64,000 nucleotides of DNA from Ophelia neglecta. Taxonomy: Eukaryota. The translations under genes and the position numbers were made by a program. The notes below the pieces were generated by a model, which was not told where the DNA came from, did not search any database, and worked only from the letters and a program-made list of their open reading frames with translations. How positions within the stretch are numbered: the first letter of the stretch is position 1; each line of letters starts with the position of its first letter. The stretch lies in contig OZ260664.1 of NCBI GenBank assembly GCA_965285935.1, positions 89,404,001 to 89,468,000 on the forward strand. Direction: 5' to 3'. Below are positions 17,321 through 51,681 of the stretch, one piece after another.

Positions 17321-17696
17321 TGCTAAGCACAAAAAAGATAACTGTTCTGTATATATAGTATATGGGGGGGCCTTGTATTGGAATACTATATGACAATATC
17401 ATGTGTATTAAGATGCCTTTTTTATTTGAGCTCACATGATTTAAAAGTAATAAACAGATGCCTGTCTATGTGCCAATTCCCAAAATTAACTTTTGTTCAT
17501 GCCTTGTACTATTGACTGGCAGCCTACCAGGGCATTACTAGCCCAGGATTAAGGTTTACAGGGTATTTATTTGAGTGCACTTATGTTCATACTGCTGACA
17601 CATGATTTATGTTATCTCACATTCAGTGAAACTGGGATTTTAATATTTCATGAAACAGGAACAGATAAAAAAACAATTCTAATGACAAAGGCCATA

Positions 17697-17924
17697 CCCT
17701 AATTACTCTAATTTTTCAATGATATAGTCTATTTTGACTCTAATTATTCAACTACCCACTGAATGTCAAAAAAGTAATTTGTAATTGTTCTTAATCTTCA
17801 ACCATGTATGCGCTTACAATATTAAAATCATGCTTTGCATTAAATTTCCTGGTTACCTTTAATTATTCAACCACATTCATTCATAATCAATTTATATATC
17901 ATTGAAAAATTAGAGTATTTAGGG
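17697..17924. mobile_element. MITE with ~30-bp TIRs and TA flanks
   Basis: TA|CCCTAATTACTCTAATTTTTCAATGATATA ... TATATCATTGAAAAATTAGAGTATTTAGGG|TA. Confidence 0.75.
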
Positions 17925-18869: not shown

Positions 18870-19068
18870 CTTCAACCGCATGCAAATACCCCTCAAGCCA
18901 ATTACTATAGCCTTTCGTCATTTTAGCCCTGGGTATTTTGGCTGTCCCATTACCCCATGCTTCGACAAACTGGAAACCAATAGGCGGAATATTGTCTAAT
19001 GATCTTGACCACACTTGCCTCGATGTTGTTGGCTCCTGTGTTGCTACGTAAACATGGTCAGCCGCCAT
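18870..19068 (-). pseudogene. Orphan first exon resembling N-termini of SWIM/YqaJ-type accessory proteins of DNA transposons
   Basis: CAAGATGGCGGC start context and a GT donor after 18870. W..SLDNIP...AKMTKGYSNWLEGYLHAVE pattern. It lies just inside a 97-bp inverted-repeat arm (19134-19231). No downstream exons were found. Confidence 0.35.
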
Positions 19069-20998: not shown

Positions 20999-23247
20999 AT
21001 GGTGTTTATATTCGAGGCAGCAGAATGCTTCTCGCATAGCAGGAAGATGAAACACTTGGACAAATATCCTTGGATGGAACAAATATCTTGGGTTAAATGG
21101 CCCCGTGACAAGGCCACATGCAATTAGCGGATTCAGCGGATTATTGCGGAATGAGCGGATTCTTCAGTTAAAACTTAATATAATGTAAGTTACCTATGAA
21201 TTCTAATTTTTCTATATATTTTCTATATTATTTTCCTAGAATTTCTAGATTTTAAAATGTTTATTATCCCGGAATGCGTTTTTGGCAACTTCTCCAAAAT
21301 GGTCTGCAGCCGATACCTCCCCCAGCCTCCAAGCAGAGCACAACACTGCATGGAGACTTGCGCAGTAGACTGACTGGGCATGGCGCACGAGGCTAATCGA
21401 GTGTAGCGTAATTTGTACAAGCAGCGGTACACAGTGAACTCGACCCATTGCGATCTCGACCCAACGCACTCGAGCCACCGGGCTTGCGATCTCGACCTAA
21501 TGAGACTGGTCGAGATTATTAAATTTTGTCAGTGTCCGTGTTGGTGTTTTGGCCTATTCGGATGCGTATACAAGCGATCTCTGGCATGTGCATATCAGAT
21601 GTGTAATTCCCTAGTTCAAATGATATTATTTATGGCGTTCTTCTGAGCAGGTTGGCTGTCCAATGTCCGTAGCCTGTCGCCAGAATACTAAAATCCGAGG
21701 TGGCTTATACACAGGTTTATACTACTATGTTGAGCGCTTAGCGTACAAAATGGAGAGCAGGATAGGAACACCAAACTTTGGTCACAGTTTAATTTTAGCA
21801 AGATGAGTGTCATATAGGCTAATATTGTGCTTTTAATTGGTGTTCACAGAATACTTGAATGAGCCATTGGAAGCTTTGATAGTTGTGGTGATATAATGTG
21901 GACAACTTCGATTAACGCACTTAAAACAGTGGGAACAAATATTCTTAAGTATGTTTTGAGTTTTCCGAACTTTTAGGTGGCCACTATATTATATGTGGTG
22001 TGAAAAAAACATTCTATGCACTAGGGTTAATTTGCTCTCACAAAACTATCATGAAATAAACATTATGTAGTCAGAGCAAAATTTTATCAGTCGCAAAACT
22101 ATTTGAAATAAATGGTCACCATACAAGTTGTTTGTTAATTATACTACAATTTGGGCCTATTTGCCATAGAGTACGTTCAGATGATTCTATCAAGCTGATT
22201 AGTCTTCTACAAAAATAGAAAATATGACATTATCATTATACTCCAAATGACCTATGGGCTGGCAATTTTTCACTGGTCACACTGAGAGATAAAATTGTCA
22301 GAATTTACCACTCTCTTCTACATTTTAAACTGTTAAAGGTTAAAACCAGTGACTGGTGACTTTTCAACATGACTGGGCTAATCAAAGATTAAAACTCATG
22401 CGCTTCACAGAATTACTGGTTACAATATTACAGAAATTCTGAATTAACTGATTGCCCTTGCCTTATTCAGTTATTCTGTGTGTGCGATGAGATGATGACG
22501 CCACGCATGTGACCTGGTGACCATGTGACTGTGCACTGCTAGTTACTAGTAGTAGCCTACACATGACAATGCAGCGTGCAACCAGCATGCTGTCTCACCT
22601 CAGTAGAATTTTAGATGCACTATACTGTTTAAAAGCATACATTACCTCGTTTTTCCAATCTAGAATTTGCGGTTGTAGTTGTCAGTTGGTTGTAGACTGG
22701 TAGAGAGGTCGCACCAGAAACGCGCCGGAAACATCGTTAAACGGTGAAAGTTACGTTACGAAACCGGTGCGGTGAAGTAGTATATGGCTGCTACCGTTTC
22801 AACGAATTTCGCTCTTTCTGGGAGATGAAATGTATGGAGAAGAGATAATAATGATACTGATACTGCCCGTGAACACCGGATTTTTACGGTAATGGCGACC
22901 CATATCTATCGGAATGCCGCCGCGCTCTTTCCGAAACTCCGCTACCAGTCTACAGCCCAAATCCGCTCATTCCGCTATAATCCGCTGAATCCGCTGAATC
23001 CGCTAATTGCATGTGGCCCCGTGACAACCCGGCATCGGTTGCATGATGGCGGCGCCTTGTACGAAGAGAAGGCAAACCTTCGAAGGAAAACTACACGATC
23101 GTTGACAAATTAAACGTGAACAAACGATCTAGGCTGTGTTCTAGACATTTCGACCCAGAACAATTGGTTAATAAACGAGGAGTCGCGATTGGAGATCCGA
23201 AATACTTCGCGTGGAACAACTGGGGACAGCTTGTCAAGCCATCTTGA
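20999..23247 (+). pseudogene. THAP zinc-finger ORF split by a nested transposon
   Basis: Joining 20999-21111 to 23028-23247 gives MVFIFEAAEC...WVKWPRDNPASVA*WRRLVRR...SRLCSRHFDPEQ. It has an internal TGA at 23044, and the first Cys is apparently replaced by Phe. Confidence 0.75.
21112..23018. mobile_element. Non-autonomous TIR element with 9-bp TSD (Mutator- or Merlin-like)
   Basis: TIR GGCCACATGCAATTAGCGGATTCAGCGGATT / AATCCGCTGAATCCGCTAATTGCATGTGGCC. Exact TSD CCGTGACAA at 21103-21111 and 23019-23027. Confidence 0.9.
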
Positions 23248-26058
23248 TCAGCTGTTCGCATGTCCCTGGGTGACCTGCGAAACATGCGCAGTGGGATGCG
23301 CAGTGGCTCGCGAAAAGTGGTCGACCGAGAAATACGAAAACCGTAGTTCTGCGGTCACCACCAGGCGGCGTATGGTATTGCAGGAATGGTCAATTGGAGG
23401 AGGGCCTTGCCAGCACTTGTACTGACAGCGTATCAGGAGAAACAGGGCAAACCGCTACTAACAAGGTCATGCAGGGATTAATTTGATTGCTAGCGATCGC
23501 CAGTTACCGGCATGCAGTGATGGTAAGCTGGTAAGGCCGCTACTGGGCATAAACCAGATTTATGACCATACCTGGAGAGTATTTGACAGGGTAGGCAGCT
23601 ATAGTGAGTTTATGACTGCGATGAGCCATTAAAGCATGTACCTGATTGGCCGGAAAAGGTAATATTTTCATTTTTAGCTCACTCAGGCGTGTTGAAATAT
23701 CCAAATGATCATACCTCGGTTTATCAAGGGTTTGGACAACATATTTTAAGGATGTATCCATATAAAGACCCTCAACCTGCGTTTATTTTGGTAGTGTACT
23801 ATTGTTTATAAACTCAACCCAGTGTTTTGAATTTTTCAAATGTTCATATCTGGACGGATTATCAAGTGGTTTTTAATATAAACTTGTTGACAATATTAAG
23901 TGCATCCCTTGGTTTGACATTTTCAAATAATATAGCTCATGTGTTTTTAAGGGATCTGCGCGATTTCTGTTGCCGTATTTTTGAAGGGGTCAATTAAGAT
24001 TCATGCATAAAGTATACTAAACTATGCTCATTTTTATATTTGGTTTTCAAAATGAGTATCATTTCAATAATTGCTCTGGAGAGCATATTGAAGTATTGGA
24101 TGGGTGTGTCCGCTGAGAAGGGGGCCTGGGGGCTACCCAAAAGACCCCCTATAATCCCATTAAAGAAAAAAGTTGAGATGGATGGAGGGGGGGGGGCGAG
24201 ACACAGAGGGTCACCTTTTTATCCCCCTTTAAAGTGAGGGGATTGTGAGGGAGGGAGGCGGCAGGGCGAGATACAGTTAACCCCTCATAAACTGTCCCTG
24301 TCTATGCAGCAGCTACCCAACAATAATGAGAACTAAAAACGTCATGGGAAAAAAAGGTATTTCATCAAACTAACAGTAAAAAATTTGTAATAGTCAGACT
24401 TGTGGATGAATAAATCAGAAGTATTTGTGTATTTAATCTGTTAAGCAGGGAATCAGTGGTGAGTCTACATGAAGCGGTTCTGATACAGATAAGAGGGTAT
24501 TTATACGGCAAATGGCTGTCACAGAACAGCCCCACTTCAGGTAAGGACCTGTACTAGATACAAGCTCATGTAATCCCGGTGTAATCAGGCATAATCACCA
24601 TTCACTGCCATTAATCAGGCCTATAATTGGAGGAGGGCCTTGCCAGCCCTGGCACTGACAGTGTATTAAGAGAAACAGGGCACACCTGTACCAACAATGT
24701 CATACAGAGATTAATTTGATTGCTAGTGATCGCCAGTTATCGCCAGTTATCGGCATGCAGTGATTGTGTTAAGCTGGTAAGGCCGCTGCCGGGCATAAAC
24801 CAGATTTATGACCATACTTGGAGGGTATTGGACAGGGAAGGCAGATATAGTTTATGACTGCGATGAGCCATTAAAGGATGTACCTGAACGGCGGGAAAAG
24901 GCAGTATGGACGAGATTAAATATAGGGCGGAGGTTGGGAGGGTTGAATTAATTGTCAGAGTTCATGAGGAGGGTGTCGGGTGGGTCTCTCACAAAGGGGG
25001 TCTGGGAGCTTATAGAGGGTGTGGGATGGGTGTCTCCATCTCCGAATGGGGTCTGAGGGCTTAAAGAGGGTGTGTATTTCCTTGGATGGTCGCTCCACCG
25101 CACCTTCACTCAACCAAGACACGAAGACATTCACCCGTTGAGGTGTGTTCAATATGTGGCTACTTGGATGAATCACACACAGTGAAGATTAATCATTTAG
25201 TTAGATCCCAGTAAATGCACTGTAGCATCAATAAAGAACATTTATGTAGAGATAGTTAAGCCCTGATGACCTGAATTCTTTGCTTCTAGGATGAGAGCTG
25301 CTGGGAAGAGATTGGGACCGGGCGTTTGATGTGTATGCAATTTAATACGACATGGGCCGACAGCAGTCTATTTGCCTAATCAGTATCCCCTTACTCTGAG
25401 AAAATATATATGACATATTTTTAAAAGACGAAATTGTATTGATAAATTGATTGTAACATTAATCTGTATGGGCTACATTCATAATTATTAGTTTGCATAT
25501 ATAAACTTAGTTGTGAATACTTTTTTTTTCTTCTCAAATCAACAGCAGAATGTAAGTATGCTGCATCATATTAAATACTTGTTCTGATATTCAAGAGCCG
25601 ACAGGAAACATGCACACACTACCGAATGCCATCAGAATGAGCATGGCCAATCATTATCAGCATCCACACCACGTCCACAGTCCCATGATTCTGGTATAGA
25701 GGTCCAGTCCATCTGGGCTGAGGCCTAGTTTGTCGTGTCCAGTCCAACTTAAAATCAGGGGGTCATTGTGTCAAGTAGACAAGGCCAGTTCACGTCGTAA
25801 GGTCGGCGGTCCAATATGTCTGGTGCAGATGCACAGCCAAAGTCCTAGGTTCACCCGTCGAGTGTGTGGACTGCAGATGCACAGCCAACGTCCCAGGTTC
25901 AGCGGTCCAGCTGTGGTATTTATTTTCTTTTCTAAAAAAAACAGGTAACCATGAATGTCCCTGAAAGGAGCAGCCACGATGGAGATTGAGACATTGGGAC
26001 AGACACCGGAGACGATTTCTACATTGTTGATGATATAAGTGAAGTGGACAATAAAACA

Positions 26059-29000
26059 ATGGACAGTGGGAGAAAGGAACTCCCTGTGTCGGGTTCAAAT
26101 GCCCCTTCAACATCTCTAGGTAAGCGAAATACTGTGTCAGAGCACAGACCCAGTCCATAGCTTAGAGTCTACTGATCTCTGCATTTGAATACGTAATTTA
26201 GCCTGTAAATATACGGTTGGTCACTTTGCACGAGTTTTAATGTGAGAACTGTTTCAGACAGTGCCACCGGGCATGAGCCGCCATACCCTGACCCAGCAAC
26301 ATGTGAACTAACTGATGAAGAAAAGTATTCATTTTTAAGTTCTAAATGGGAAGAGGAACACATCTGGAGGTTTGACTTTCCTCCACGGTTAGTATCACAT
26401 ATATGATACCACACGAGCTATGTATAGAATAAAGACGGAAAAATCAAGCTTAAAACGCTATTTATGGCAAAGTAAATAGTTGACAGTAGTATGATTGTTT
26501 GGTTTAATTGGTTGTGTAACAAGAATAGAATGGGATAGCATTTATTAATTACGTCGTGTGACACGCGGGCTGGGGGTGGGGGTCATAGGGATGAGTAGGT
26601 TACATTGGCTCTTCTCATAATCAGCTAATTTACTTAATTTTTATAAACACATAAATGTTTGGCCTGACATGAATAATATATGTAATTATTTAAACCTATA
26701 CCAAAGAACAAAACAGGAATGTAAGTTGGTTTTCAGATACGCCAGTTTAAACATAGCTGGGATGTTTGTTTGTTTTTTTTTTGGGGGGGGGGGAGGGGGG
26801 AAGGGGGTGGGCACCGGTCATGGTAAAGGGTAAGGATCCTACTTTAGTTGCCAATACTGAATAATCAGCACGGCACTCAAACCATCAAAAATTCCACTTT
26901 TTCAATCCACGTGTAATTTAAGAAGGGGGTCCTTCTACCTTATTTCAAAAACTGAAAGACAAAATGAGTGTTATATGTGCTTATTAAAACGTTACTGATT
27001 TCCCGATCTAAATACACAGTTGAGAGCTGATTGTTTTCGCACATCTTGTACAAACTTGATAACGTACAGTATATGGCAGAATATTTTACAAAATTGGGAT
27101 ATTTTTATGCGTTTGTTGGAATATAACCTCATGGATACTGCACTTTTTAGAGCAGGCGAAGGCTAAATACGACAGTGGATACACTATAAACCAAACAAAA
27201 TATTTAATTAATGTTAATTCATTAAATAGGTTCGAAATCACAAGGAATGATGGACCAAGCTCTCATAATTGTGAGACTAAAACAGGATGCAAATTGTGGC
27301 CGTGTTATCATATTAAAGAACAAGCGCTTGCTCCCTCATAAATGCATATACTGATTTATATAATAATATTATTTGAGACATGAAACTTGGTTTCCTAAAA
27401 TCATGTCACCTAACATCCTTTTAAATGGTATTTGTCCTGACCTCTTTTTTTTAGGCATTAAACAGACTTAGTCAGTCAACATTGCAGAGATTTATAATAC
27501 GTGGCTATCCTAAACCTGTTGACCAAGGTTCCTTTAATTAATGCAGGGAAGTGATCATCTTGCACTGTGGATTCTTAATGTACAGTAAAACCTGTGAATA
27601 AAGACCATCCAGGGACTGAAAAATGCTGGTCTGATTTTGGAGGTGGTCTGCTTAGACAGGTTATTAAATATTGAAAAATTATGTCAGGGTCCTCATATAA
27701 AGTGTCTGAATTGGCAGGTGGTCTGATTATAGAGGTGGTCTTTAAGACAGGTGTCACTGTATATATCCCCCAAATAATATGAGTAGTCACAGTTTAATAT
27801 CTGTGTTTCAGTAATTACATTTCATCTTGAATGATTTTCTGTCTGCTTGTCATTGTTCAGGCGGCGGGGCAAGAAAACTATGAAGCTTCAGCCACATTGG
27901 CTTACAGACTACCCATTGTTGCGGTATTCAGTGAGCGAGAATGCTGTCTACTGTGTTTACTGCCTGCTATTTGGGGAGGAAGATCAAACATTCGGTCGGT
28001 CTGCAGGTTATAAAGATTGGTCTAACCTGAAGAAGCGTATAGACAGTCATATTAAAGAGGGTTCCCCTCATTATCATTGCATGAATGAGGCTGAAACTTA
28101 TTTAAAGACATTTGGCAACGTTGGCGCCATGAAAAATGAGAAGGATGTAAACGAGGAGGTGGGTACAATAACACTCGAAGATGACCAGTCCGATTTGATG
28201 GAGGACCTCCAGGGAGACAACACAGAGATCAATAGAGAGGTGAGTGGTCTTTACAAGTATACCCTGGGCCCGCTCCCAGGAAGCAGTCTTAGCGCATCAC
28301 CTGAATTAAAATCAGGATAGAATTAAAGTGATTAATCATTAAGTCGAATAGGTTCTCATCCTAGATACACCTGCCGTTTATATTACCACTAGCTTACTAG
28401 TTTATTAACTTATCTCTGATGTGCACAAGGTATTTCTAGAAATCTGCATTATGTTGTTATGTTCCTACATGTGTCTTTCTCATTAATTGTACAGTTGAGG
28501 CTGGCGAGCATGACGTCCTTTTGTGTAGATCGGTTTGTCGTGCTTCCATTTCCTCAACTGTTTTTAGCACTTCATATATACATGCGTGCTTGATGTACAG
28601 CCACCTCATGTCGCCCTTCATCCCATCACCTCACCTCATCCATTGCATGCTGTTTAACCTAATGTTCTGTATGTTGATATGTTGGAAATTACCGATTTTA
28701 AGCCATAGGCTTTTGTAAGATCCAACATAGAAAAAAAATAAATAAATAAATAAATATGTTTAAACCAAAGTGATTAATCGGTTTCAACTTGCTGATATGG
28801 GTTTCTGGAATCTGGAGTTTTGTCCTTATCCCGACCATTTTGGTCTTAACCTTAATCCTGGTCAATGGAATCACCAATTAACGAGTTCTCTGTTAATCTA
28901 ATCCCTAAACTTAAGACCGGCTTTAGAAACCAGGCCCTCAAGTTCACCCAACTGTTGCTCCTTGTGAAAATGACATGAATCTACACTAGTAAATTCTTGT

Positions 29001-32000
29001 GCTTACATAATCCGAAGAAACATTTTAATCATTTTGTTTACTAGACAAGTAAAAGCATTCAGTATTAATTTAATACTCAATGCAAATGTTCCAAATGGCA
29101 GTTTGGCAAAAGGCCAAAGACTTACCAAAAGAGCAAGTCAACAGATACAGCTAAAATAATACTTCAAAATAAATAAACACCATGCACAAAGGCCAAAGAC
29201 AGAAGAGAAAACGGTTTTATTTGCATTTGTTTGCGGAATGGTAGCATGCAAATGGCAAATCTCAATGGCATTACGAAGCTTCGCACACAATTGACATGCA
29301 GCATTGTTTTCTATTCGGAGCTTTGTATTAAATAATGGCCGAATCGCTTTAATTTTTATTTCGATTGTTCTTAAATGACAAAAACTGTATCATTTTCATA
29401 ATCAGTGCTTATGTAATTTGGTTGCTGGTGGCAATGATTAACGCTGTTTAAGTTAAAAATAATTAACAAGACAGTCGCTTGATTTTATTTGATCTGTGTC
29501 GAGGTGATCATTCCGATAGCCAACGCCAAAGTCGGACTTCCCGGACAGGGAGTATGCTTACAATCTTAAACACGCCGGTTTTTCTGTCTGGTTCTGACTA
29601 GACATGTGAAATTATTAATTGATTCTTTTAGGCGGCCGTTTTAAACAGATATGAGCATTTTATCTGACAATTGAAATAAGAACCAAAAATAAATCATGTC
29701 TCTTGGACAAAATCGCAATATTCATCAGCCAAACTGCGTTATAAAAGTAAATCTATATGTTTAGGCTACTATTTTTTAAACGCTTTTGAAACAAAATGCA
29801 CATTAAACGCGTGGCATGATAATGAAGTTATGACAGAACTTTATATCTATTATTTTTTAAATAATAGGTGGTTCATAAAAGAAGTTTGATTAGTGTAACC
29901 TACAATGCATAAATACAATCTAATAATATTAAACACGGGTTTAATATATTCTATATGTTTTAATTTCTGTTAAAGAGCCAAGGATTTCAATTCTCAATAT
30001 TGCTCGCAAATATAAAAATGTCAAAGTCAAGTCAATCTTTAGAATTTGTTGACATGCTACTAATTAAAAAAAATAAGTTTTGTTTGTAATTGCGATAGTG
30101 CCTTTCCCATGAACAAAAACGGGAGTAGATGTAAAAGTTCCTCGCATACTAAACAGGAAATGGTGTTAAATATCCTCGATAGTGCGCTTAGATGGACAGA
30201 CTTAAATGAAGATATGTTAGTAATAAAAGTTGAGCAATGTAACATGATCATGAATAATGTCAATTTTATTTCAAACAGATTGTCAATCTAACTAACCAAC
30301 TTTGATAGATAGAGCATAGTTTCTTCTTTGCCCTGAAAGACTGAGACTGAATAGATTTAATGTTATTATAGTTTGCATCCTGGCCGGCTGTGGCCTCATG
30401 TCCGGGGTAGCACCAACTCCTTTGTATGACTACCTATATTGGTCTTTAACGCTTGGTGCCTGAAGAGATGCCACGGTCTCTTGGTTTCATATCATTGATT
30501 CCACTGCTAACAAGGTTAATCCATGTCGTCCTGCTAACATCATCAAGACCTGTAATGGGTTTGTTGCTAGAGTTTAAGCTTGGCTCATGCTAGCACAAAC
30601 AGCCAAAACAAACATTAACAACGGTGTCAGGAGTTGTTCAAGTCGGCAAAGGCAATTTGTATAATTCAAGACCCAAAATAGTTAAATTTGTCCGGGAAAT
30701 TTGCAATAAAACGGTAAGTATGACAGCTGACTGGTATCTGCCGCAATCGAGGGGCGTAGTATCTATGTAAATAGCAAGTTATCAGAGAGCTTGCCGAGCA
30801 ATGCGGCCTGCTGCACAATTGCATTCTCACATATCTACCGATATTTTCAAGCAAAAGCAATACGATTAACAAACTTTTGATTAACATATTATGTTGGTGT
30901 CATGTTTTGGCATACTGAAGCATTCTACGAGTTATCTTTATTAGGTAGATGAACGCTTCAGGTCAAACAACAGCCAAGATGGAGATGGAGACACTGGCAC
31001 AGACAACGGAGAAGAGTGCTACACTGATGATGATATAGGTGAATTAGACAATGAAACAATAAATAGGTGGAGAATGAAACACCTAGAGGAGGAATCTAAA
31101 CCTGCCTATTATCCCATGCAAGAGGCCATAGCTGAAAAAATAGTCGATAGAATAGAAAGTATTCTTCGGTTATACCATGACAAATGTCTGTCAGACTTCG
31201 ATGACTTTGAATATCAGATTTATACCGCAAAATTCAGTATGTTGGAAGAACAAACTGAAAAGAGGGTGTGTGCCAGGATGGCAGCATGTTTTCATGACAG
31301 TGTTTATCAGGATCCGGCATATGTCAGGGACCTAGCAAAACAAAGGGTTCAAAAATATGTGTTAGGTAAAGCCGAAATAATCAGAAACGAGCAGCTGTTT
31401 GAGCTGGCAAAAGCTAAACCGAAGACTTTCTTTCTAATAGTAGCTGATGAGGCTCATTGGGGAGTTGGAAAGCCGGGGGAAAACGAAACTGGTCAAGATG
31501 GAGAACACATGGCATATGCGAACACTTCGAAAGCTGGGGCACATGGCAAACTCATCAACTGCTGGACTAACGAATTCCAGAATGTTATTGTCTTGTTAGT
31601 CACTGCTACTGGGTTTAATCTGAAAAGTCAAGATTCCCGACTATGGCATCAACAAGATTTTATCAGGATTCGATCAAAAGCAAGTAACAAAAATGCAACA
31701 GGGAATGACCAGCTTTATTTAGTTACAAAGGAAAGAGCTGTCTATATTGATAATAAAACTGACAAACCAGTCAAAATAGAGAATAGCGAGGTAATGGAAG
31801 ACAAGTTGCACTGTGTGAAATGGTCTGAGGGGCACCGGGATAAGCTTCTTCAGGGTATGGTGGTTAGACTGCGTGTACCAAACATGGAAGGACATGAACC
31901 TATATGGTTCAAACAAATATCTAAGAAAACTAGTGGTGAAATTCAACCGGTCTGCGTGACACATGAGGAAGACGAGTCTTTGGAACTCATCATGACTGGT

Positions 32001-35000
32001 AGGGATAGAGATAATGTCGAAATCAAAGCATACAACAGCAATTGCCAAATGATAGCATACAGAGCCAAACGGTCTATAGGTGCTCAGCATCAACTTGGAT
32101 TTATTGAGGTTAGTACTCTGCAAAAGTTTGAAAAGGGAAATGATGTGTGCAGCAAATTCAGAGTTCACATGATATGCGGTGAAGACATTTTAGAGCTTGA
32201 AGCGGTCAGTGTGACCCGTGGATACCTGAAGTATGAAAACAAACAAGAATGCATAGCTTTAGGTCGCCGCCCAACCGATGAAGGATTTGAAGACCTTGGC
32301 CTAGCAATTCATGGCTGCGAGTACACATTCATCGTGGACTATTATGCCGAGCATCACATGCTAAAAGGCGCACAGAAACAACAAATGCAATACCTATCTT
32401 TGAACTTCTTCTACAACACCATGCGCAACAGAAAGAAGGACGAACAGTTGATCAGAAGTGACAAAGACTACATTAGTATGATAAAAGGCATGGTGAAGTC
32501 ACAGAAGATAGATACTAACAGTAAAACTATTTTGAATGACACGTTGAATGACTATATGGCCGCTGAATATTCCTATTACATTTTGATGCAAAAGTTATTT
32601 TCCCGGTGTAAATTAGCAGCACTTTCCGTTGATCTCTTTGATAAAAACCCTGGCCAAGCTTTTGGACCTGGTTATGTTAAAAGGGTGGATACATTGATAC
32701 ATGACTTCCTTGAGAAATTGTTTAAATACTGGGAGAAGTTACCAAGCTCTGGGAATCAAATTCTTCCCATTGAGGCTGAAATATTTCAAAAGTGGTATGC
32801 ACTTTTATGTCAAAGAAGTAGAGATGATTTAAAAATGAAATTGAAACACCGTGACGATAAAGAAACAGCAAATGCCTTGATCAGATGTTTGCTTTTCCAT
32901 GGTTCTTCAGAGATGAATAGTTTAAAATTGTGCTTAAAGGGGTACAGTGCTCTTTGTCATGAACTGCTTCAAAGGAAGTGCAATACTTTTCAGGCCACTA
33001 AGACAGACATACTTGCAGAATCAGAAACTTACAGGATTGTTAATAGCGTATGCAGAAAACAAAAGCTTGTTGTAGTTCGGGTCCACAAAAATATTCGGAA
33101 ATCTGCAAGGAGCTCTCCCGGAAACAGGTTATACAAGACCATCACCATTGCCAGGGACATTGCTTACGGTAAAACTTTTGAATTTGAAGTGATACGAGAT
33201 TTTGGAGAATTCACAGTGAGCACGGTAACAGAAGATGTGACGAGCCAGAAGTACAGAATTCACCGACGACTACAACCTGAAATATGCCAATATGAAGATG
33301 CCAGGTTTTCAAAGTGCAACAGGGGCCCGCGTGGAGAGCCATGTAATGACTACAAGCCAGTGGCGCCAGATCCCACATGTCAGAACTGTGCTCTTAAGCA
33401 CACTAGTGACTCTGAAGCGGGGCAATGTTTAGACTACAAACCAGTGGCACCAACTCTCACATGTCAAAACTGTAACCACAAACACAAAGTAATCAAGGAC
33501 TACAATGATCTAAACACCCTACCTTGCATCCTGATTCTTGTTGACAAAGGGAGACTAGGAGACACATTTCCAGAAAGTTTCTGTGCACTGGATCAAAGGC
33601 AGCAATTCAATTATACCAAAATGATAAGTACCAAAGAAAGGAAGTCTGATTTATATTTGTCCCGTATAATGCAAGAACTTGGACGACTTTGTCGCTATGC
33701 TTACAGACCTGGACAGATATTACCAAACCATCAGGCGTCATCTTATACTGATCTGCCATATGCTCTGGTTGGGGAAAAGCTATTCAATTATCTTGTAGAG
33801 TCACTAAAAAAAGTTCCTGTGTTTTATGGCTATTTCGCAAAGAAAGGTGACCTAGATGCTTATGTAAAATCATCTAAGTCTAGTAAACCAAATGCATCAA
33901 ACATCCAGACGGGAAACAAAAGCACAAAATCCCCAGCGACAGAGCCAGAGAGGGACGAGGATGACCTTCGTGAAAAGGTTACCAAGTTGGAGGCAAACGT
34001 TAGAAGTTATGATTTCGGAAACACAGAAAAACACACAAACAGGCTGTTACTAGAAGCTGAGCCTCAAATTGGTAAAACAGGCGTTTATCTGAAAACTGTG
34101 AGCATATTGAGAAAGAAAATTTGCAAGGAAAAGGAAATTGAGTATATCGAGCAATACGATTCGTCTGATGAAGAAGATAAAGAGGAAATGATGACAGAAC
34201 CTTCTCTTCCTGCCACATATGAAGTAGGAACAACGAATGAAAACGCAGACCTATGGAGATATCCTTACTGGAGGGACATGGAATCACAAAAACTCCCAAA
34301 AGTGGGACCGGGAAAGTACGATCGTACAATTGGATCTGCACATTCACCTGGAGGAAAAGAAAAAACTGAAAATGTGTTTCAGAAAGACAGAAAAGGACAC
34401 AAACAGGAAGGAAGAACCATCGAACACGATTTTGAGCAAGATCAATTTAAAGCTTACAATTACACCCACAGTTGCCCAAAGTGCAGGATACATGAATTAG
34501 GCAGGCAGATCAGTAAACGCGTGAAAATTGAGCCTTCTGGTAGAATTGATGACTCATTTCATGTGAATGTTAGTATTCCAGATTTGAAAGAATATGAGGA
34601 TGTACAAACGTTAGTTAACCCAGATGAGTCCCAGAGAAAAATCACATCACAGACATTAAAAACTGATACATCCCTTGAAAGCTGGATATTTACGTCATCT
34701 TACAAAAGGCACAATGATGCTACCGTGAATTACAGACATACTATGGTACTCGAAGAGAACAGTGCCAAATGTCACTATGTCCACTTCCTAGTGGTGAGGA
34801 GGGAAGAGTACCCTCTTTACTGTAGTTACTGGGGAAGTTCACACGGGATTATAGAGCTGCCTGAAGACATTTCCGTCAAGGGTGATGATGATGTCGTGAA
34901 AAAGGTAGATGCCGAAAGCGGCGGCATTGGCTATTCCCGTCTAGTCATTCAGATGTTCGCAGCACAATTGGGTTGTAAACATATTTTCATGATAGATGAT

Positions 35001-38000
35001 AATGTAATGTCCATTCATGAAATAACCACGCAGTGTGGTGACGACGGACAGGAGAGAATATTGAGAAAAGGCCGGCATCTACAACTCAAAAATGTTCCAT
35101 TTTTCAAAGCTCTGAAGCATATAGAGAACCAACTGTGCCATCCTAAAGACAAAGCGGACAAAGTCATGCAACTTGTAGACAAAGAAAAGGCATATGATCA
35201 TGGTGTGCCATTAGAAGGGCTAGAGGGTTATACCGGAAGTTCAGACAAATATGCCGTACTTGGCTGCTTAAAAGTCAGACGAGGCGTCCTTCATGTAAAA
35301 CAACCATTTAAGAAAACTTATGTGTCTTCTCTCGTTTTGCTAAACCTGCTCTCACTCAGGGAAAAAAACATCCAATACGATTTAAAGGAGAAATCATTCG
35401 AAGATGTGCATCTGTGTCAAAGATGCGACGAACGGGGCCTGTGGTCGTGCAAGTACAACCGATTTGTAATGCGGAAACTGAACTTAAAATCCCACATCAT
35501 TAGTGATATGTTCTATTGGCCAGAAGATGTGAGGCTGTCATCATACATTAAAGCAACCCATAAGCTGCCAGATGAGGAGGATGAAAGAAATAGGTTTCTT
35601 AGTTGGGTTGAATCCAAACATCCTCCGTCAAATGTTCAACAGTACCTACCTCATGAAAAAAAGGGTAGCGCGGTAGAAGTATGGTGTAAAAAGTTCAAGT
35701 CAATCGCAAAAGACAATGCCCAGTTGCATTTATTGCTATACCTTAACAACAATAAGTCACTAGTACAACTCCACGAATACTTCAAACGTACATGTGGAAT
35801 TGGTGGTTTTGATCAGCATATCATTCTCTTTTCGGAAGTATTCTGTCGAGCCAATGAATTACTTTGTTACCAAGACTTTGTTTGTAAACTTATAACGCCT
35901 GTGTTTGAAGAACAAACCAAATGTGTTGTGATCTCTACTCACAGCATTGAGCACTACACTGTCAGATACATAGTCCTTCTCATCACAGGAAAAAGTAAGT
36001 AAATTTGATATATAATAACGAATCTAAATGTAATAACATGTAACTCATTCCATATTGTTCTTGATGATGTATATCATATCATTTCCCTGAATGTTAATCG
36101 TCTAACTTTAAATGAATATTTGCTATAACTTTGCAGTTTCTGATCCTCTGGACAATGATGCTCTGTCTAATGTCATCGTAACACCCTCAGACTCCACGCC
36201 AGCGCAAATCATTGTAACAATACCCGATTCACCTGAAGAAGGAGAGCAAGAGAAGTAAGTTACAAAAGAATCCCTTCCATGGCCATCGATGTAATACACT
36301 GTCCAATTATTTCTGTCCGTTTCGTGCGATTATGAAATATCTACATTTAGACAATATCGAACGCAACTGATCCTTATTACGATACTCTGAAGCCGAAAAC
36401 CAGACTTCTGCTGAATGAGAATTGCTAATCAGCTACTCACATAATCATTTTACACTACATGCTGTTATTAATGCGAGTTTAAATAAGTCTTCCCCTTCCC
36501 ATTCCAAACTTAAAAGTGAATCCATCTCTCCTTTACTAGTTATGTTCCATCTTGCCGGGTCTGTGTATGCCGGCTCAAGGCTGAAAGCAGTGTTCAAAAC
36601 AACTTCAATACTAAAACACCTGGGAAGTGTTATACAGAATACTCGTAGGCTTTAGTACTTATTATTTCTAAAGGAAAGAGATACAACTTTCTCAAGTCGA
36701 GTGTTATACTTACATTACGTCAATAGCCCGTTTTAAACTGTAGAGTCATAATCAACGTTCGGTAATTGGAACACCAGGGTTACATCAGACAGAAGACACA
36801 AGGTTTTACAAATACCATGGGCCCAAACTCGAGTTGTCATGATGGGGAGTGTTAAGGTCATACAGAGCCCAAAGAAACTTTTCCTTAGCTACTCACAAAA
36901 AAGAAATTATAAATCGCCAAGCAGCCAACTGAAACCTTAGTAGAGCAGCTAAAACCTAAAACAAAATAAGTAAATAGAAACGAGAGTGGATGTTATTATA
37001 ATCTTTCGCAAAGTGGCGACTTTCGTTTTGATTTATTTTGAAATGATGTTTCGATGATCACCGACACTCCTATGGAGAGATTCAATGGTCTGCCCACATA
37101 CTGGAAACCGCACTCATTGCAAGTTATTAGAAAACTAGTTTTAATTGTATGAAAACTAATAGGAAAAGAAGAACAAACTGAATGTGTATTTTTGTGAACA
37201 AGCACTGGAAAACTGGTGATGCCCCACGACTACCCACACCACTACATAAGGACGAGACAGCCATCAATTTATCGAGAAGTGTGGTACCTGTATGTGGAGA
37301 CGGCCGCTCTCTGTTTAGGTGCATTGCCGCATAAAAGCTGTCCACGGCAATTTAAATTGATAAACCCACTTCAAATTCACCTTTGGACATAACATAGGTA
37401 TCTGTTGCTTTTGAACCAAATCCAAACTACCGCGGTTTACAATATTAAGTTAGTCGGGGCAAACACCATTTTACTTTGTTTAGGCATGTATTGTGGAAAA
37501 ATTTCACCTGTCATGTTACATTAATAAGGAAGCCTTATGTTCTGTCACAAACTCTTTATAGCAATTATGTGTGCAAAACAGGGATAGAAATAATTTAAAC
37601 TCAGTTCTTCCAAAGCACACTTGTCTATGTCCTATGTTCACCATTTATTCGTTTGCACGGTTGTTTGACTCTTTCATATATTTTCATGTGGGTCATTTTT
37701 TTCTGTCATGAATTGCAGCCACTGCGCGTTTTTCGCAATTCACGCATATAATGTAAGAAAATATTACAGAAACATGCTTTCTTTGACGTCTGATTTTTCC
37801 TTGCAGCAGCCAGGATTCCCCACCACTTCAGACTCCACTACATGTAGAAGAGACAGCCGTCAATTCTTCGACCAAGGTGGTACTTATTCGTGGAGACGGT
37901 CGCTGTTTGTTTAGGTGCATTGCGGCATACGGTTTGCCATTTACAGCGGTGAACCGCGAAACTAGGGAGGAATGCATAGCCGACAAAATAAGGCAGCAGG

Positions 38001-39762
38001 TGACTGGCATGTTGGAGCAACATGTCAAGGAGCTTTCAAAAATTGAAAAGGACATACCGTTTATTCTTGAAAAGAATAATGCTGAATACTATGATTCAAT
38101 ACAAGATCGGATCAATTGTATGAAAAACACGTCAGAGTTTGGCGGCTATCTTGAATGTATGGGAATCGCCTTCTTGGCAAAATTACCCATTCATATATAC
38201 AGAGAAGAAAACGATCAGTACAAACTACATGCAAAGTTTCCTCAAGACCATTATGAGGAATCACTGCCCATATCTATAGTGTACACCATGGACCGACGAG
38301 ACCAACCGGGACATTTCAATTTACTCCTCATCGGCGACAGTAAGCAACCAGAATGGAGCACTAACGATGACAACATTTTCCCGACGAGAGCAGATGACAG
38401 GCATACTGCTTCATTCATGGATATTCTAAATACCTGGTCTGATACCACCAAATCGACAAGTCTAGGTAATGAATTATTTTTATTTGAGCAAAACAGCTAT
38501 ATACAAACTCAAATTAACATAAACATATACATTACTAAGTCGTCCGGACGCCAACACTAGTTGAGGCTGATTTGTTGCAGGCCCTCCTCTTCATTACAAC
38601 GCCTTATTAAAGTCAATGAAATGAAATATTATCAAAATGATTATACATGAGCATAAGTAATAATAGTCAGCTTAGAATACAATGTATTTCAACATACACA
38701 CAGTACATCCATACATATGTAAACATATTGAAACAATTGTACATACAAATTGACACAACCATATTGGCGCTTTCTATAAATTAGGCATCTAATGTACGAC
38801 CTTGAGATCAGATGAGGTCATTCAAAGACATAAATGTAAAAACCATAATGCAATCGAAGATGCAAAGAAGCAGAAAATAGTTTGCAATCATGCTATAAGC
38901 AACACTGAAGTGCCTTTTCTTTAACAAGAATTACCACTTAACGCACGAACAGTTGCTTTCATACAATGATGAAAAAAATTGAACTTATAATTTGATGTAT
39001 GCTTCCATGTTTTTAATTTCAAGTAGTTAAATATATTATTATATCACTGTGTTTATAACATTTATTAGACCTTTATCAGAATGGATATAGCGTCTATGGC
39101 TGGTGCAAGGTTTGCGTCATATTTGTACCAATTCTAATAAGAATGATGGGGTACTGATTGTTATATTTTATGAAAAAGCTTAGGGCACTTCAGTGACGGT
39201 TTGCTCGAGATAAAAACTCCTGACCAGTGTGCCATTAGCTCACTACTGTGTAATAATCTGTCGAATGTAGGGGGTGTTTGACAAAATACGTTTGAGAGAA
39301 TGCGCCTGATATTGATTACCAAATACGGATGTCTCACGTCCAGGGTATCGCGAGTGCAGCATTTAGGGAAAAGAGCCTGGTTTGCTAGTCGCTAGTTTGA
39401 TTTTGCGTTATGTAAATACTAATTAATATTTTTTTAAATATTTAGTTAAATATCAACCCTTTTCCTTTTTAAAGTCATTTCTTGTTATCGTTGGATTCGT
39501 TGTTATTTCAGATGAAACATTTATCCGTGAGAACTCATGTGCGTTATGCCACATTCCAGCTAGTTTTGAAGAGGCAACATGTTTGAGTGAGTCAGCACTT
39601 GAACAATCAACTGTCGCTCTAGTGCACAACATACTTTGGGTGCGTTGCATTGGTTGTTCCGGTTGGTGCCACCTGCGATGCTGTCCCAATTACTACTCAT
39701 TTGCCGACTTAGTTCTGATAAACAGAGAAGATAATGGATTTTATTGTACTAATTGTCAATAA
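26059..39762 (+). CDS. Multidomain GREB1-like protein: ZnF-TTF + circularly permuted SF2 helicase + TAGT glycosyltransferase + OTU + PHD (~2215 aa, 7 exons; 5' end uncertain)
   Basis: Exons 26059-26119, 26258-26387, 27861-28239, 30945-35994, 36137-36254, 37807-38465 and 39512-39762. All introns are GT-AG with matching phases (1,2,0,1,2,1). The total is 6648 nt with no internal stop. Confidence 0.78.
26258..28239 (+). CDS. Exons 2-3: TTF-type zinc finger (hAT transposase/ZMYM-like)
   Basis: LTDEEKYSFL..W...FDFPPR|RRGKKTMKLQPHWLTDYPLLRYSVSENAVYCVYCLLF...GYKDWSNL...H...PH. Confidence 0.8.
27583..27759. mobile_element. Tc1/mariner-type MITE in intron
   Basis: TA|CAGTAAAACCTGTGAATAAAGACC ... GGTCTTTAAGACAGGTGTCACTG|TA, with internal GGTGGTCT subrepeats. 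Confidence 0.8.
30945..35994 (+). CDS. 5050-bp exon: GREB1-like circularly permuted SF2 helicase plus TET/JBP-associated-type (GT-A fold) glycosyltransferase
   Basis: Walker B LIVADEAHW (~31446), motif III VTATG, motif V LVDKGRLGDTFP and motif VI QELGRLCRY (~33672) all precede Walker A EPQIGKTG (~34059). The C-terminal part has IFTSSYKR, HFLVVR.EE, GIGYSR, FMIDDN (~34995) and ED..L.....GL...KYNRF...K. Confidence 0.85.
37030..37135 (-). mobile_element. Decayed GIY-YIG endonuclease fragment (Penelope-like) in intron
   Basis: LITCNECGFQYVG followed, after a 1-nt slip, by QTIESLHRSVGDHR. Confidence 0.55.
37205..37335 (+). pseudogene. Degenerate duplicate of the 5' part of the OTU exon
   Basis: PTPLHKDETAINLSRSVVPVCGDGRSLFRCIAA* versus QTPLHVEETAVNSSTKVVLIRGDGRCLFRCIAAY at 37830-37930. 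Confidence 0.8.
37807..38465 (+). CDS. Exon 6: OTU-family cysteine protease domain
   Basis: GDGRCLFR catalytic loop (Cys at 37904), FGGYLE, and GHFNLL (His at ~38312). Confidence 0.85.
39512..39762 (+). CDS. Terminal exon: PHD finger (not in the ORF track)
   Basis: CALC...ILWVRCIGCSGWCHLRC...FYCTNCQ* matches C4-H-C3. The tttcag acceptor is in phase with the OTU exon donor. Confidence 0.8.
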
Positions 39763-42353
39763 GTGTATTTTAAAATGGTTACAACACATGACGATCGAGA
39801 TGTGTCGACAAAAACGGTCTACTATCATGCAAACCAACAATCCCACATACGCTAGAAAGTATTGATTCAGTCCATGGAAAAAATTGTCCCTTGACCCGGT
39901 AGCCTAGAGTTGGGCTACAGTCTCAATCTGACCGTAGAAAGGCTAACAACAAAATAACTAACGATTGGAATTCAGGGCTCACTCGTAATGAAATGTGGAA
40001 AGTAATGGATATCTTCAATCATCTACCCTCACCTCCACCTCGCAGTGTATTCCCGAAAAGGTAAGCGTCTTGTGAGAACAATAGATGACTTAGTAATATG
40101 TTAAACCAGCCTCATTTGAATGCCGTGATACAAGTGTCTAAGATGAATACACAAACACTGTATTCAACATGCGTTTCTGTTCCTGTAAATTTGCATGAAC
40201 TAATATTTTAAATTGAGACAAGTTATATATATTAAACTTAGTCTTTATTATTTGTGTATGTATCTAAAGCTGGTCGAAGACACCAACTTTTCAATGGGTT
40301 TTATAAAGACCAATGTTAGAATATGTTTTAATAAGCAGTAAACCTTTATTTGTTATTATGTATGCATGTCATATGTTATTCATTATGTATACACCTACAT
40401 ATTATATACAGTCTTCAAAGTGAATTTTAATGAAACGTGCGATAGCATAAAATGAGCAAATATTGTACATACAGTGTGTATAATTAGATTCTTAATAATT
40501 CAGAAAATGAACACAGCCTATGCCTTAAACATCAGCTTATAACATTTTACCCCTTCGCAATTTTCACAATTATTTCTTCATGGATCTATCATGACATAAA
40601 GCATCAATACTTTAATGTTATTGACTAAATAGAACAAAGAACCTTTACATAATGCGCACCCTTCCTCTTAGGCAATCTTGGTATGTAAATATATCAACAC
40701 CCAAGTATATATCCTGAAATGCCATATTATATGATATTTGAATAGTGAGTAGTTTCCAGTTTAATCGCGATATGCCTATTCATAATAATTCGATTGTGAT
40801 TTATTAATAAAATGAAATCGGATTTAATTGCTTGTATTTTGTCTTTGACTTATCTTATTGAAGCGACCGAGCTACCGTGGAAACGATAAAAGGAATTAAT
40901 TAGTGTACATTGGGAGAAGGAACTCAACTATGTATTTTATAATATGTAAAGATAAGTCAAGAGTTTCACTAAATGTAACTCCAAGAAAAATAAACTGATA
41001 TTCGATCATAAGTCCATGAGGATAAGGTTGGTAGTACGTTTCATGTAGAGCTCATAAAAGCTAACTCCTGCTCGAAATCCAAACCAAAATATCTACACGT
41101 CATCTCCAGGGTGTAAAAGCGGCAGGCCGCCTGGTCGAGGGCAGAGTAGTATCCAAGCAGATGGTTCAGCGTTGATTACTACTAGCTGAAGTCAGAGCGT
41201 CGTACTACTTTAATTTGTTATGTCTCAGCCGACGTGAGCAGAAGCACCTGATATTTATACAGGTACCTTAACAGCGGATATTTATACACAAAAAAAGATA
41301 AATTAATCAACTATTGTTCCCGCTGCTGCTTTAGGAGGGACTTCGGACAAGATCCGGACACTTTGAATATTCTTGCTCCAGAGAAAAGGCCCGTGACAGT
41401 CGGCAGTTTGACCTCTTTCCGTATAAATGGGCATATATATTATTGGGCGATGCGATTAAAATCTGGGTTTATATACAGTGTAATCCCTGGATTCTGATCT
41501 GGCGTTGAAACTTGTACTTATATTTGAATGTGTGCTTATGGTTTGAATATAAATTTAGCATTTCATTATTGGATTTAGTTTTGGAACTAGAATATGGCGC
41601 TGACATACCAGCAGCGAAGTGTTCTTCTGGATCCCTATAGCTTTGCAACTACGCACAAAAAATGGATTTATGACAGCAAGCAGGTGGTGACACTTTTATC
41701 TGTCAGCAAGTGGCTTTAAGCTGCTCGTTACTAATAGAAAAGGGAACATAAAATATATATTGCTTGGTCAACCGACCTTTAAAAAATGCATCCATGCCAG
41801 AATCCATTCGATGTAAAGAGCCTCCTTCTCCCATTCACATACACCATCTGTTAAACTGATCCATGTTAAATATAATCATAGCTATATTGATACATGAAAA
41901 CAACCGAGTTAGTTTACCTCATTCAAAACTGCTTTATATTATAAATATAGGCAAAGTACAACAAAGCGGTTTCGAACTTTACGGACTTCTTGTTCGGAGC
42001 TGCGAAAAAGTTTGAATTTGTTTGATTATGCGATACCCATGATAGTAATGTGACACTAATAAGATTGGACTTTGTTTGAGAAAAGTGAGGCGAGGATAGA
42101 TAGCACTGAAAATATAAATAAGCCGCAAGCCATACATCTCTACCTCCAATATCGCCCACTGTAATCATAACATTCAGTGAGCTGTTTCCCTACTATACTG
42201 GCATCCTTTAGCAACAGTGACCATCATTGATATAAAGAGGTGTGAACGCACCCTCCACAGCCGGCTGCCTGCCGGTAGTAACACGAGTAAGGGTTCTACG
42301 CGCAAGTAAAACCTGCTGATTGCGTAACGCATTGTGTTAACTCGGCCTTACTA

Positions 42354-42502
42354 GGCGGTAATGTCGAGTTATCGTCTAGACAGCATTACCAACTTCAAGT
42401 AATGCTGTGTGTCATGACAGACAGCATTACCAGAAGTTGGTAATGCTGTCCGATTGACACACAGCATTACCTGAAGTTGGTAATGCTGTCCGATAGACAC
42501 AC
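42354..42502. repeat. Array of three ~41-bp palindromic units, probably the subterminal region of a TIR element
   Basis: CAGCATTAC-N9-GTAATGCTG x3, preceded by GGCGGTAATG and truncated by the Gypsy LTR. Confidence 0.65.
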
Positions 42503-42671
42503 TGTGATATATTCATATTAACTACTTGTAGTACTATACTACTATACCTACCTATCTATTGTATTATTTGACGTCATAGCACGCATGCGCAATAACGTGT
42601 CTCTCCTCGTGTTTACTTCAAGCTTAGTCGTTGGCTTATTTCCATGCCCACTTTACACCGAAAATATTACA
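42503..42671 (+). repeat. Putative short 5' LTR (169 bp)
   Basis: TGTGATAT...ATATTACA inverted ends, immediately upstream of the PBS. Confidence 0.7.
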
Positions 42672-42672
42672 G

Positions 42673-42685
42673 TGGCGACGAGGAT
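42673..42685 (+). promoter_or_regulatory. Primer binding site, tRNA-Ser type
   Basis: TGGCGACGAGGAT is complementary to the 3' end ATCCTCGTCG-CCA of tRNA-Ser(GCT). Confidence 0.8.
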
Positions 42686-42962
42686 CGGCCTAGACGGACC
42701 AACAAGATGATTCGGTGGATATAGCTGCTCAGTATTGTGATATTGGCAACGTTTAGGAAGCGTGGATTTTCAGTGGATTTGTTTTCTTTTGTGCATGGGG
42801 TTCAGATCTCATGAATGTGACACTGGACATTTTGAGCACATAGGTGGAGTGCCGTGTGCAGAGTGTGGAACTTTGACAGCCATTTTTCTTTTCGTCTGTG
42901 AGTGAGTACAAGGATTCGATCCTGGAATTTTCAATATTGCTGCCGGAGGCTTTATTGGCAGT

Positions 42963-43770
42963 GTGGGAACTTATGATAGCACAAAAGAAACTTTTGTTGC
43001 ATATACTGAGAGAATAGAAATGTTTTTTGAGGCAAATAGTATTGTGGAAACACCTGGCGAAACGGAGGCACAGGTAGCGGCAAGACAAGCTGTCAAGGAC
43101 AGGAAGAAGGCCATTTTTCTTAGTGAGGTGGGTGCAGAAGTGTATTCTATTTTAAGCAATTTAATTGCTCCAAACAAGCCCAAGGACAAGGGTATCGATG
43201 ACATTTATGAAGTGCTGAAAGCACATTTCAATCCTCCTCCACTAGAAATTTCAGAATCATTTCACTTTGGCACAAGGAATCAGAAACCAGGAGAAAGCAT
43301 CAGTGATTTTATTCTAGCTCTAAAGAAATTGACCATTCATTGTAACTTTGGCACTTACCGTAGTAGAGCTCTAAGAGACAGATTTGTGTGTGGCTTACAA
43401 GATTCCAGGATTCAGAATAAACTTCTGAACACTAAAGATTTAACAATTGACAGTGCATGTCAGATAGCTACAGCAATGGAGATGGCTGACAGGCAAGCAA
43501 AGGAGATGCGGACCAGCTTAGGAAGTGGCAAGCCAGAGTCTGGAGCTGTAAATAAAGTTAATAGGCAAGCTCAGCAGCAGAAGCAAGCAACTGGAGGACA
43601 TTCAACTGGAAACCTGGATCCAGGCCTTCCGGAAGTGACCAAATAAACTCCCACAGAGGAAACATCGTGTGTTATAGATGTGGTGGTGACCATTTAGCCA
43701 CTAATTGTTTAAGGAAGGGAGCCACATGTTATAAATGCAAGAAATTAGGTCATCTTGCCAATAGATGTCG
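42963..43770 (+). pseudogene. gag: Gypsy gag with two CCHC knuckles (frameshifted)
   Basis: RNQKPGESISDF..L......CNFG...LRDRFVCGL. The knuckles CYRCGGDHLATNC and CYKCKKLGHLANRC (43670-43768) lie in a different frame from both the upstream gag and pol. Confidence 0.85.
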
Positions 43771-51651: not shown

Positions 51652-51681
51652 TGTATTGGCCTCTGGTGCTCCATCGTGTCC

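Follow-up and report, generated by a model that had tools for sequence, protein, structure and literature searches.

A clustered GREB1-like gene family in Ophelia neglecta with an intact set of permuted helicase motifs and a fused glycosyltransferase domain

RESULTS

A GREB1-like core in a single large exon

The stretch of Ophelia neglecta DNA analyzed here (64,000 nucleotides of contig OZ260664.1, assembly GCA_965285935.1, positions 89,404,001 to 89,468,000 of the forward strand; referred to as the window) harbors a gene of the GREB1-like family, in which a circularly permuted superfamily 2 (SF2) helicase module is followed by a glycosyltransferase domain. The permuted helicase motifs lie in a frame of 1,685 codons, open from stop to stop at 30945-36002 (+), and residue numbers given below are positions in this frame. 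Motif numerals are the labels in general use for SF2 helicases. The features of the large exon are as follows.

30945..35994, +, large exon of 5,050 nt, with the permuted SF2 module, the TET/JBP-associated glycosyltransferase (TAGT) domain, and a C-terminal alpha/beta domain
31221..31271, +, motif Ia-like segment, in which L100, Q103, and R107 are almost invariant
31446..31457, +, DEAH of motif II/Walker B (IVADEAH), residues 168-171 (D168 at nt 31446)
31602..31610, +, motif III (TAT), residues 220-222, with A and T invariant in 42/42 aligned sequences
31818..32354, +, predicted beta-trefoil between the RecA halves, residues ~292-470 (AlphaFold2 model and VIA)
32355..33056, +, predicted helical insert domain, residues ~471-704 (AlphaFold2 secondary structure)
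33057..33869, +, RecA2 half with a Cys-rich insert (33282-33494) and motifs V and VI
33546..33572, +, motif V (KGRLGDTFP), residues 868-876
33672..33695, +, motif VI (QELGRLCR), residues 910-917
34062..34079, +, displaced Walker A (PQIGKT), residues 1040-1045, with predicted docking on the DEAH half
34650..35486, +, TAGT glycosyltransferase domain of GT-A fold, residues 1236-1514 (Pfam), with a DD motif at 34995-35000

Motifs I, Ia, II, III, V, and VI of SF2 ATPases are thus all present and conserved, the Ia-like motif YTAKFSMLEEQT occupying residues 93-104. The frame matches Pfam PF20692, "Circularly permuted SF2 helicase found in GREB1 proteins" (cpSF2-GREB1), with 223.9 bits (E value of 6.2e-66; cutoff, 26.2), and, C-terminal to the helicase, PF20691 (TAGT) with 58 bits (E value of 1.7e-15). 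The original prediction had assigned the region to the permuted module of the GREB1 family, with the order DEAH, TAT, motif V, QELGR, and then a Walker A about 870 amino acids on; both statements hold, D168 and P1040 being 872 residues apart, and the order is not a matter of chance, because the Pfam match is of the strength given above. The permuted order itself is a catalogued and already published trait of the family, and is not new. The interval proposed originally, 31430..34090, contains the motifs but omits the start of the RecA1 half, the glycosyltransferase, and the other exons. All of 24 key residues that were checked are kept in 12 of the 13 full-length frames of the family in this genome.

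No Pfam match to GREB1_N, GREB1_2nd, or GREB1_C was found in the frame or in the 2,215-amino-acid protein described below, and a genome search for GREB1_C found neither a match nor its control. A Protein Data Bank sequence search with the family profile returned nothing significant and no helicase. Fold searches with the helicase model gave lists filled by beta-trefoils, an outcome that does not count against a RecA fold, and weak Pfam matches to ResIII occur in two homologues.

Predicted docking of the displaced Walker A

The ATP site of SF2 enzymes is formed by two RecA domains and closed by the arginines of motif VI. An AlphaFold2 model of residues 121-1100, built with 42 sequences, reached a predicted local distance difference test score (pLDDT) of 84.4 and a predicted template modeling score (pTM) of 0.87; over the strand and helix of Walker A the pLDDT was 92-94. 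A split test, in which the segment 1011-1068 was folded against residues 50-299 without alignments, scored 0.65 (median of three), the best of 3 controls scoring 0.00. The mark used for this test is passed by 51/78 solved complexes and 2/108 mismatched pairs; for eukaryotes it is passed by 39/65 solved pairs without a like complex (71/105 overall) and by 2/126 unrelated pairs. At least 57% of contacts agreed between the runs, and the partner pLDDT was at least 53. Among the residues listed at the interface are G1043-K1044-T1045, the strand of motif III, and the Walker B strand that carries D168-E169, and the 25 lowest-error pairs listed are packing contacts of the helix that follows the P-loop. 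As single-domain halves may pass by resemblance to solved helicases, the split test backs the geometry and not the activity. The expectation that Walker A would fold back beside the DEAH is therefore borne out in these predictions, and it is quite likely that the module is a working ATPase.

The glycosyltransferase domain and the inserts

The TAGT domain is predicted with a pLDDT of 85.7 and resembles GT-A enzymes in VIA (Z of 12.9-13.3; root mean square deviation [rmsd] of 3.6-3.7; 180-185 residues aligned). Its D, D, G, and R residues are invariant in 36/36 aligned sequences. A small Cys/His-containing region lies between Walker A and this domain, and the C-terminal alpha/beta domain (35490-35990, +, residues ~1540-1682) is well predicted and bears no Pfam name. 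Foldseek listed COMT methyltransferase chains (E value of ~6e-3) without ranges, a weak similarity that may concern the C-terminal domain. If left unspliced, the large exon would end at the TAA at 36000-36002.

Two inserts separate motif III from the RecA2 half. The first is modeled as a beta-trefoil, whose best VIA match has a Z of 15.1 (rmsd of 3.2; 142 residues aligned), and all 50 of the matches listed are beta-trefoils (lectins, IL-1, FGF, and MIR). The insert at this place is ~160-190 amino acids long in homologues of the animal clade and 4-10 amino acids in Capsaspora and compact relatives; the sequences that fall together with annelid and coral members form a clade with a support of 0.984 (FastTree; 299 columns, 55 sequences, midpoint root). 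A predicted beta-trefoil within the helicase of the animal clade is new here. The Cys-rich insert of the RecA2 half (33282-33494, +) contains an internal duplication (two CxDYKPVAPxxTCQNC units), is modeled with low confidence, and has no Pfam match better than an E value of 0.07.

Intact motifs are the norm outside vertebrates

Among 248 proteins collected, 158 match all three core blocks, and the permuted order was found in 158/158. This set includes the query and many near-redundant corals, which are over-represented. DExH, QxxGR, and QxGK[TS] are kept together in 143/158 of these proteins, so that an intact DEAH is not exceptional but the family norm outside vertebrates. The sources include Paralvinella, stony corals, Capsaspora, Hondaea, Guillardia, and Cyanophora. 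Coral proteins reach ~750 bits against the Pfam model, which therefore describes intact members well. Two weak searches for viral homologues, in viral_contigs (217 pattern matches, none confirmed) and INPHARED (no match), gave nothing.

The helicase module of vertebrate GREB1 is described as catalytically inactive in PMC7968844 and PMC6163654, which cite Iyer et al. 2013. Support for the eroded Walker B that the original prediction attributes to vertebrate GREB1 comes from these two descriptions. By parsimony, the intact residues would be ancestral and would have been lost in vertebrates. The suggestion of a more ancestral state is thus likely to be correct for the residues, which are intact in Capsaspora, Hondaea, Guillardia, and Cyanophora, but it does not extend to the protein as a whole, because the beta-trefoil insert is derived, the expansion is recent, and the extra exons are lineage specific.

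Partner domains across the family comprise ankyrin, OTU, caspase, kinase, leucine-rich repeat (LRR), and ZZ domains. Fused or doubled members are P0242, P0116/P0247, P0084, P0095, P0043, P0103, P0217, and P0025, with fusions to LRR (Capsaspora), caspase (Guillardia), kinase (Cyanophora), OTU, or ZZ, and with the module doubled in Hondaea and in P0043. Corals, too, carry several copies per contig.

A probable seven-exon gene

The large-exon frame begins directly after an AG acceptor and has a GTAAGT donor just ahead of its stop, and this donor is kept in 14/14 other loci, including a paralogue of 58% identity. Splicing seven exons in silico yields 6,648 nt encoding 2,215 amino acids, with no internal stops, AG/GT ends, and matching phases. 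The six exons proposed in addition to the large exon are as follows.

26059..26119, +, putative first coding exon, with an ATG in the context AAAACAATGG; GT donor kept in 11/11 matches
26258..26387, +, putative exon forming the N-terminal lead-in to the zinc-finger module; AG/GT and open frame in 10/10 fully covered copies
27861..28239, +, putative zinc-finger exon; intact in 9/9 fully covered copies
36137..36254, +, putative linker exon; open in 12/12 copies with AG kept, donor GT in 3/12 and GC in 9/12
37807..38465, +, putative OTU cysteine protease exon (GDGRC...GHF; Pfam OTU, E value of 8.4e-08); intact in 9/9 fully covered copies
39512..39762, +, putative last exon with a PHD-like C4HC3 finger (Cys/His pattern); intact in 7/8 fully covered copies

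Further exons upstream of 26059 are possible. Three length variants were seen among the exons (+6, +6, and +12), all of which keep the frame, and the annotated Paralvinella protein likewise extends beyond the corresponding GK position. In a look for expression, contigs of one sample, from three runs, covered all 30 bins, introns included.

The zinc-finger exon has no Pfam match. Its closest match outside the family is the N-terminus of a hAT transposase-like gene with introns (DUF4371 and Dimer_Tnp_hAT; L099 7005-9870, -) on C2, with 39% identity and an E value of 2.6e-9; we take this finger of the N-terminal type of hAT transposases to be what is called TTF-type. There are 26 matches to the exon on C7, and a three-exon module occurs 1 to 4 times per gene copy, repeating in frame. 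The first exon region (25945-26119) is homologous to the beginning of the large exon (30945-31080), and the in-frame repeats would be accounted for by unequal exchange between the two.

All 12 genome matches of the OTU exon lie inside the duplicated repeat unit described below; a degenerate partial duplicate of its start was spotted by eye at ~37200-37340 (+). The PHD-like exon has no Pfam match. Atlas clusters of PHD proteins at 0.90 serve as a lead, and 5/7 sub-threshold PDB matches are PHD-finger proteins (KMT2D, Bye1, and Spp1). A broken orphan copy of this exon lies just left of the window, on the opposite strand (L045; C7:89,400,263). From the reading frames and splice sites, a fusion of 2,215 amino acids with zinc fingers, OTU, and PHD is probable, and would be recent.

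A recent clustered expansion by segmental duplication

Fifteen loci with both cpSF2 and TAGT matches are present in the genome, which measures 762 Mb and which the tree places as probably that of an annelid relative. Four of these loci lie at C7:89.2-89.9 Mb and nine at C7:101.5-102.1 Mb; C12 has one, and a divergent one is at C7:74.4 Mb. Thirteen close copies that were compared are 91-99% identical, the divergent copy is 57-59% identical, and the fifteenth locus is in pieces. Frames are full in 13 loci, one carries a frameshift in TAGT, and one has deletions. Against the window copy, the ratio of nonsynonymous to synonymous substitution rates (dN/dS) is 0.21-0.34 in 8/11 close copies and 0.50-0.55 in the other three, of which two lack the OTU core and the third is the C12 copy, which has DDAH in place of DEAH and no zinc-finger exon. 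Against the 58% divergent paralogue it is 0.24 (dS of 1.2). These ratios show purifying selection on the core.

The duplicated unit in the window is as follows.

2400..64000, no strand, segmentally duplicated unit with the gene, ~50-70 kb, reaching ~9 kb past the window, edges approximate

At C7:101.6-101.8 Mb, head-to-tail units of ~50-65 kb contain the gene together with a DUF1647 gene and repeats. The co-duplicated DUF1647 gene (L046 5799-6860, -) is a single frame of 353 amino acids (E value of 2e-17). The C12 copy consists of 23.5 kb from the interior of the unit and has different ends. An assembly artifact was considered as the source of the copies and rejected, since they differ by 1-9% with a synonymous bias, carry private insertions, and vary in the number of zinc-finger modules; the 99% identical L026 and L027 could still reflect a single, very recent duplication or an echo of the assembly. 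The expansion is one of segmental duplication with birth and death, and is not evidently transposition. Such a recent clustered expansion is new here.

It could be argued that the whole unit is a large mobile element carrying the helicase-glycosyltransferase as a protective or replicative gene. Near-identical copies do occur in three places on two chromosomes, and the zinc finger resembles the N-terminus of a hAT transposase. Nevertheless, the left 540 nt of the unit, whose left edge is approximate, have no inverted counterpart in any locus examined; neither shared inverted repeats nor target duplications were found among the copy ends that were covered; the unit's open reading frames that were scanned contain no transposase, save for retroelements private to the window copy; the C12 copy ends differently; and the gene has introns of the spliceosomal type. 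With no common ends found among the copies covered, this explanation appears largely refuted, and we consider it very improbable.

Another explanation is that one functional gene is being copied passively by unstable segmental duplications, the expansion being near-neutral and the OTU, PHD, and zinc-finger pieces being transposon debris or a separate gene. The presence of the gene in 50-70 kb head-to-tail units alongside other genes and repeats, the near-neutral ratios of the accessory exons, and the broken state of several copies are what would be expected. Passive copying does not readily account for the low dN/dS of the core in most close copies, for six introns with matching phases and canonical ends, for zinc-finger modules that repeat in frame, or for the multi-copy clusters of corals, and we regard it as improbable.

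Several other features were observed in or near the clusters. An open ankyrin-repeat frame (3-1835, +; 610 amino acids; Ank_2, E value of 1e-44) leaves the window, is not part of the duplicated unit, and was not found beside the other copies examined. Frames of 544, 186, and 206 amino acids at 4100-6779 (-), with raised GC content and no Pfam match, are present in several, not all, units. An insertion of ~2.6 kb with 59-nt inverted arms (20795-23400), not found in other copies, is likely a DNA transposon. Another insertion private to the window copy, from 42.3 to ~66.6 kb, contains pieces of a long terminal repeat retrotransposon (protease, reverse transcriptase [RT], RNase H, and integrase), which are interrupted by endonuclease-RT frames of the long interspersed nuclear element type. 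Repeats of 80-85% identity surround the copies near 89 Mb, and a truncated copy of the 3' part of the gene lies at C7:101.56-101.57 Mb.

DISCUSSION

Comparison with known systems

Vertebrate GREB1 and GREB1L (PF20692 and PF20691) have a permuted SF2 module followed by TAGT, as does the O. neglecta protein, and the nearest Atlas clusters, taken as leads, are GREB1 proteins (0.82-0.87). The comparison rests on the descriptions of vertebrate proteins in the papers and not on their sequences. Homologue searches gave no vertebrate protein among the named matches, which came from invertebrates and protists. Whereas the vertebrate helicase is reported as inactive in the two papers cited above, motifs I, II, III, V, and VI are intact here by sequence. 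Vertebrate GREB1 has GREB1_N, GREB1_2nd, and GREB1_C domains, to which the protein studied here has no match, and the core that is one 5-kb exon here belongs to a gene of 38 exons in human. The 15 loci, the predicted beta-trefoil insert, and the putative zinc-finger, OTU, and PHD exons are further differences.

The closest named relative is LSH36_269g08046 of Paralvinella (35% identity), which forms a clade with the O. neglecta copies (support of 0.997). Like these copies, the proteins of Paralvinella, Stylophora, Acropora, Montipora, and Oculina have intact DExH, QxxGR, and PQIGKT motifs, an insert of trefoil length, and TAGT; corals differ in having added ankyrins, or an N-terminal OTU domain not detectably similar to the OTU found here (BLASTP E value of 0.77). 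No PHD was found in ~40 homologues scanned against Pfam, a scan in which gene calls blind to introns would miss such exons. CAOG_01586 of Capsaspora, the "GREB1-like protein" of Hondaea, and the members from Guillardia and Cyanophora share the permuted order and intact motifs, mostly with TAGT; these protist members have other partners (LRR, caspase, kinase, or tandem doubling), and Capsaspora and its compact relatives lack an insert of trefoil size. The TAGT-family GT-A domain is shared with phage TET/JBP-associated glycosyltransferases and the kinetoplastid base-J glucosyltransferase, and such relatives glycosylate hydroxymethylated bases (PMC7968844 and PMC4111573). Phage TAGTs are described there in operons with JBP-like genes, in contrast to the O. 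neglecta gene, which has no linked JBP-like gene.

The beta-trefoil insert, the clustered expansion, and the fusion with zinc finger, OTU, and PHD were not found in the literature searched; Iyer et al. 2013 and its supplements lie outside that search, and may list intact invertebrate members.

A proposed DNA- or chromatin-directed glycosyltransferase

These data make it likely that the gene encodes a glycosyltransferase that is coupled to ATP and acts on DNA or chromatin, as a variant of the known GREB1-like family. To a more specific mechanism, in which a probably working SF2 ATPase holds on to DNA or chromatin and places the GT-A glycosyltransferase fused to it on the target, we give about an even chance. 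The C-terminal Walker A is predicted to complete RecA1, giving an ATP site between two RecA domains that is closed by the motif VI arginines. ATP hydrolysis stimulated by nucleic acid would clamp or move the protein and bring the target to the neighboring GT-A domain, whose DD motif would let it use a metal-bound nucleotide sugar. The sites on DNA or chromatin may be chosen by the zinc fingers and PHD, and OTU could strip ubiquitin there. The protein would act in the nucleus, and a role in genome conflict or defense may be proposed because lineage-specific expansion and turnover of partner domains fit it. The acceptor could be a hydroxymethylated base or a DNA-bound protein, and we lean slightly toward a preference for a target bound to nucleic acid. 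It is rather improbable that the protein writes a mark like base J on hydroxymethylated DNA, with the ATP-driven permuted SF2 motor moving TAGT along DNA, a variable set of transposase-derived zinc fingers and PHD targeting it, and OTU deubiquitinating at these sites in genome defense, and that this is what vertebrate GREB1 lost.

A number of observations weigh against the mechanism to which we give about an even chance. Protein GalNAc transferases also pair a GT-A domain with a beta-trefoil. The pair K1044-D168 is absent from the 25 lowest-error pairs of the split test. Several copies are decaying, as shown by DDAH on C12, the frameshift, and the deletions. Among near-identical copies, the zinc-finger, OTU, and PHD exons have ratios of nonsynonymous to synonymous changes (N/S) of 0.77-1.6, with few changes, which are like those of intron controls (0.60-1.66) and give no clear sign of purifying selection; the helicase and TAGT blocks have an N/S of 0.29-0.53 (the 14-copy blocks include the divergent paralogue). 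Moreover, around the 58% paralogue (C7:74.34-74.40 Mb), none of the zinc-finger, OTU, and PHD exons has a match. Since the accessory exons behave like introns and the paralogue lacks them nearby, the fusion is stated here conditionally. All three Tet_JBP matches of the genome (3/3) fall in one gene on C8, away from the clusters; an unlinked TET could supply 5-hydroxymethylcytosine. Finally, human GREB1, the only family member assayed, O-GlcNAcylates ER-alpha and is mainly cytoplasmic, according to PMC7968844.

The last two observations raise the possibility that the O. neglecta protein is, like human GREB1, a protein glycosyltransferase, in which the ATPase is a switch that senses nucleic acid or cargo and the trefoil binds substrates that are already glycosylated. 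Lectins are among the top matches of the trefoil insert, and GalNAc-T2 is among the tied top GT-A matches (Z of 12.9). However, the trefoil fold does not show a function, IL-1, FGF, and MIR lying within ~2 Z, and the intact SF2 set, which is under selection, together with the putative zinc-finger and PHD exons, points to DNA or chromatin. We therefore consider a protein glycosyltransferase of this kind possible, if somewhat unlikely.

GREB1 is important in hormone-dependent cancers, its helicase module has been described solely as inactive, and its relation to the DNA-glycosylating enzymes has yet to be settled. An intact motor, a 5-kb core in a single exon, and natural variants (the DDAH copy and the copies without OTU) make two things testable, namely the function of a permuted SF2 motor and the possible glycosylation of DNA bases in any animal. 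The fifteen-copy family of O. neglecta is thus a test case for the former role of a motor that is reported to be dead in human GREB1.

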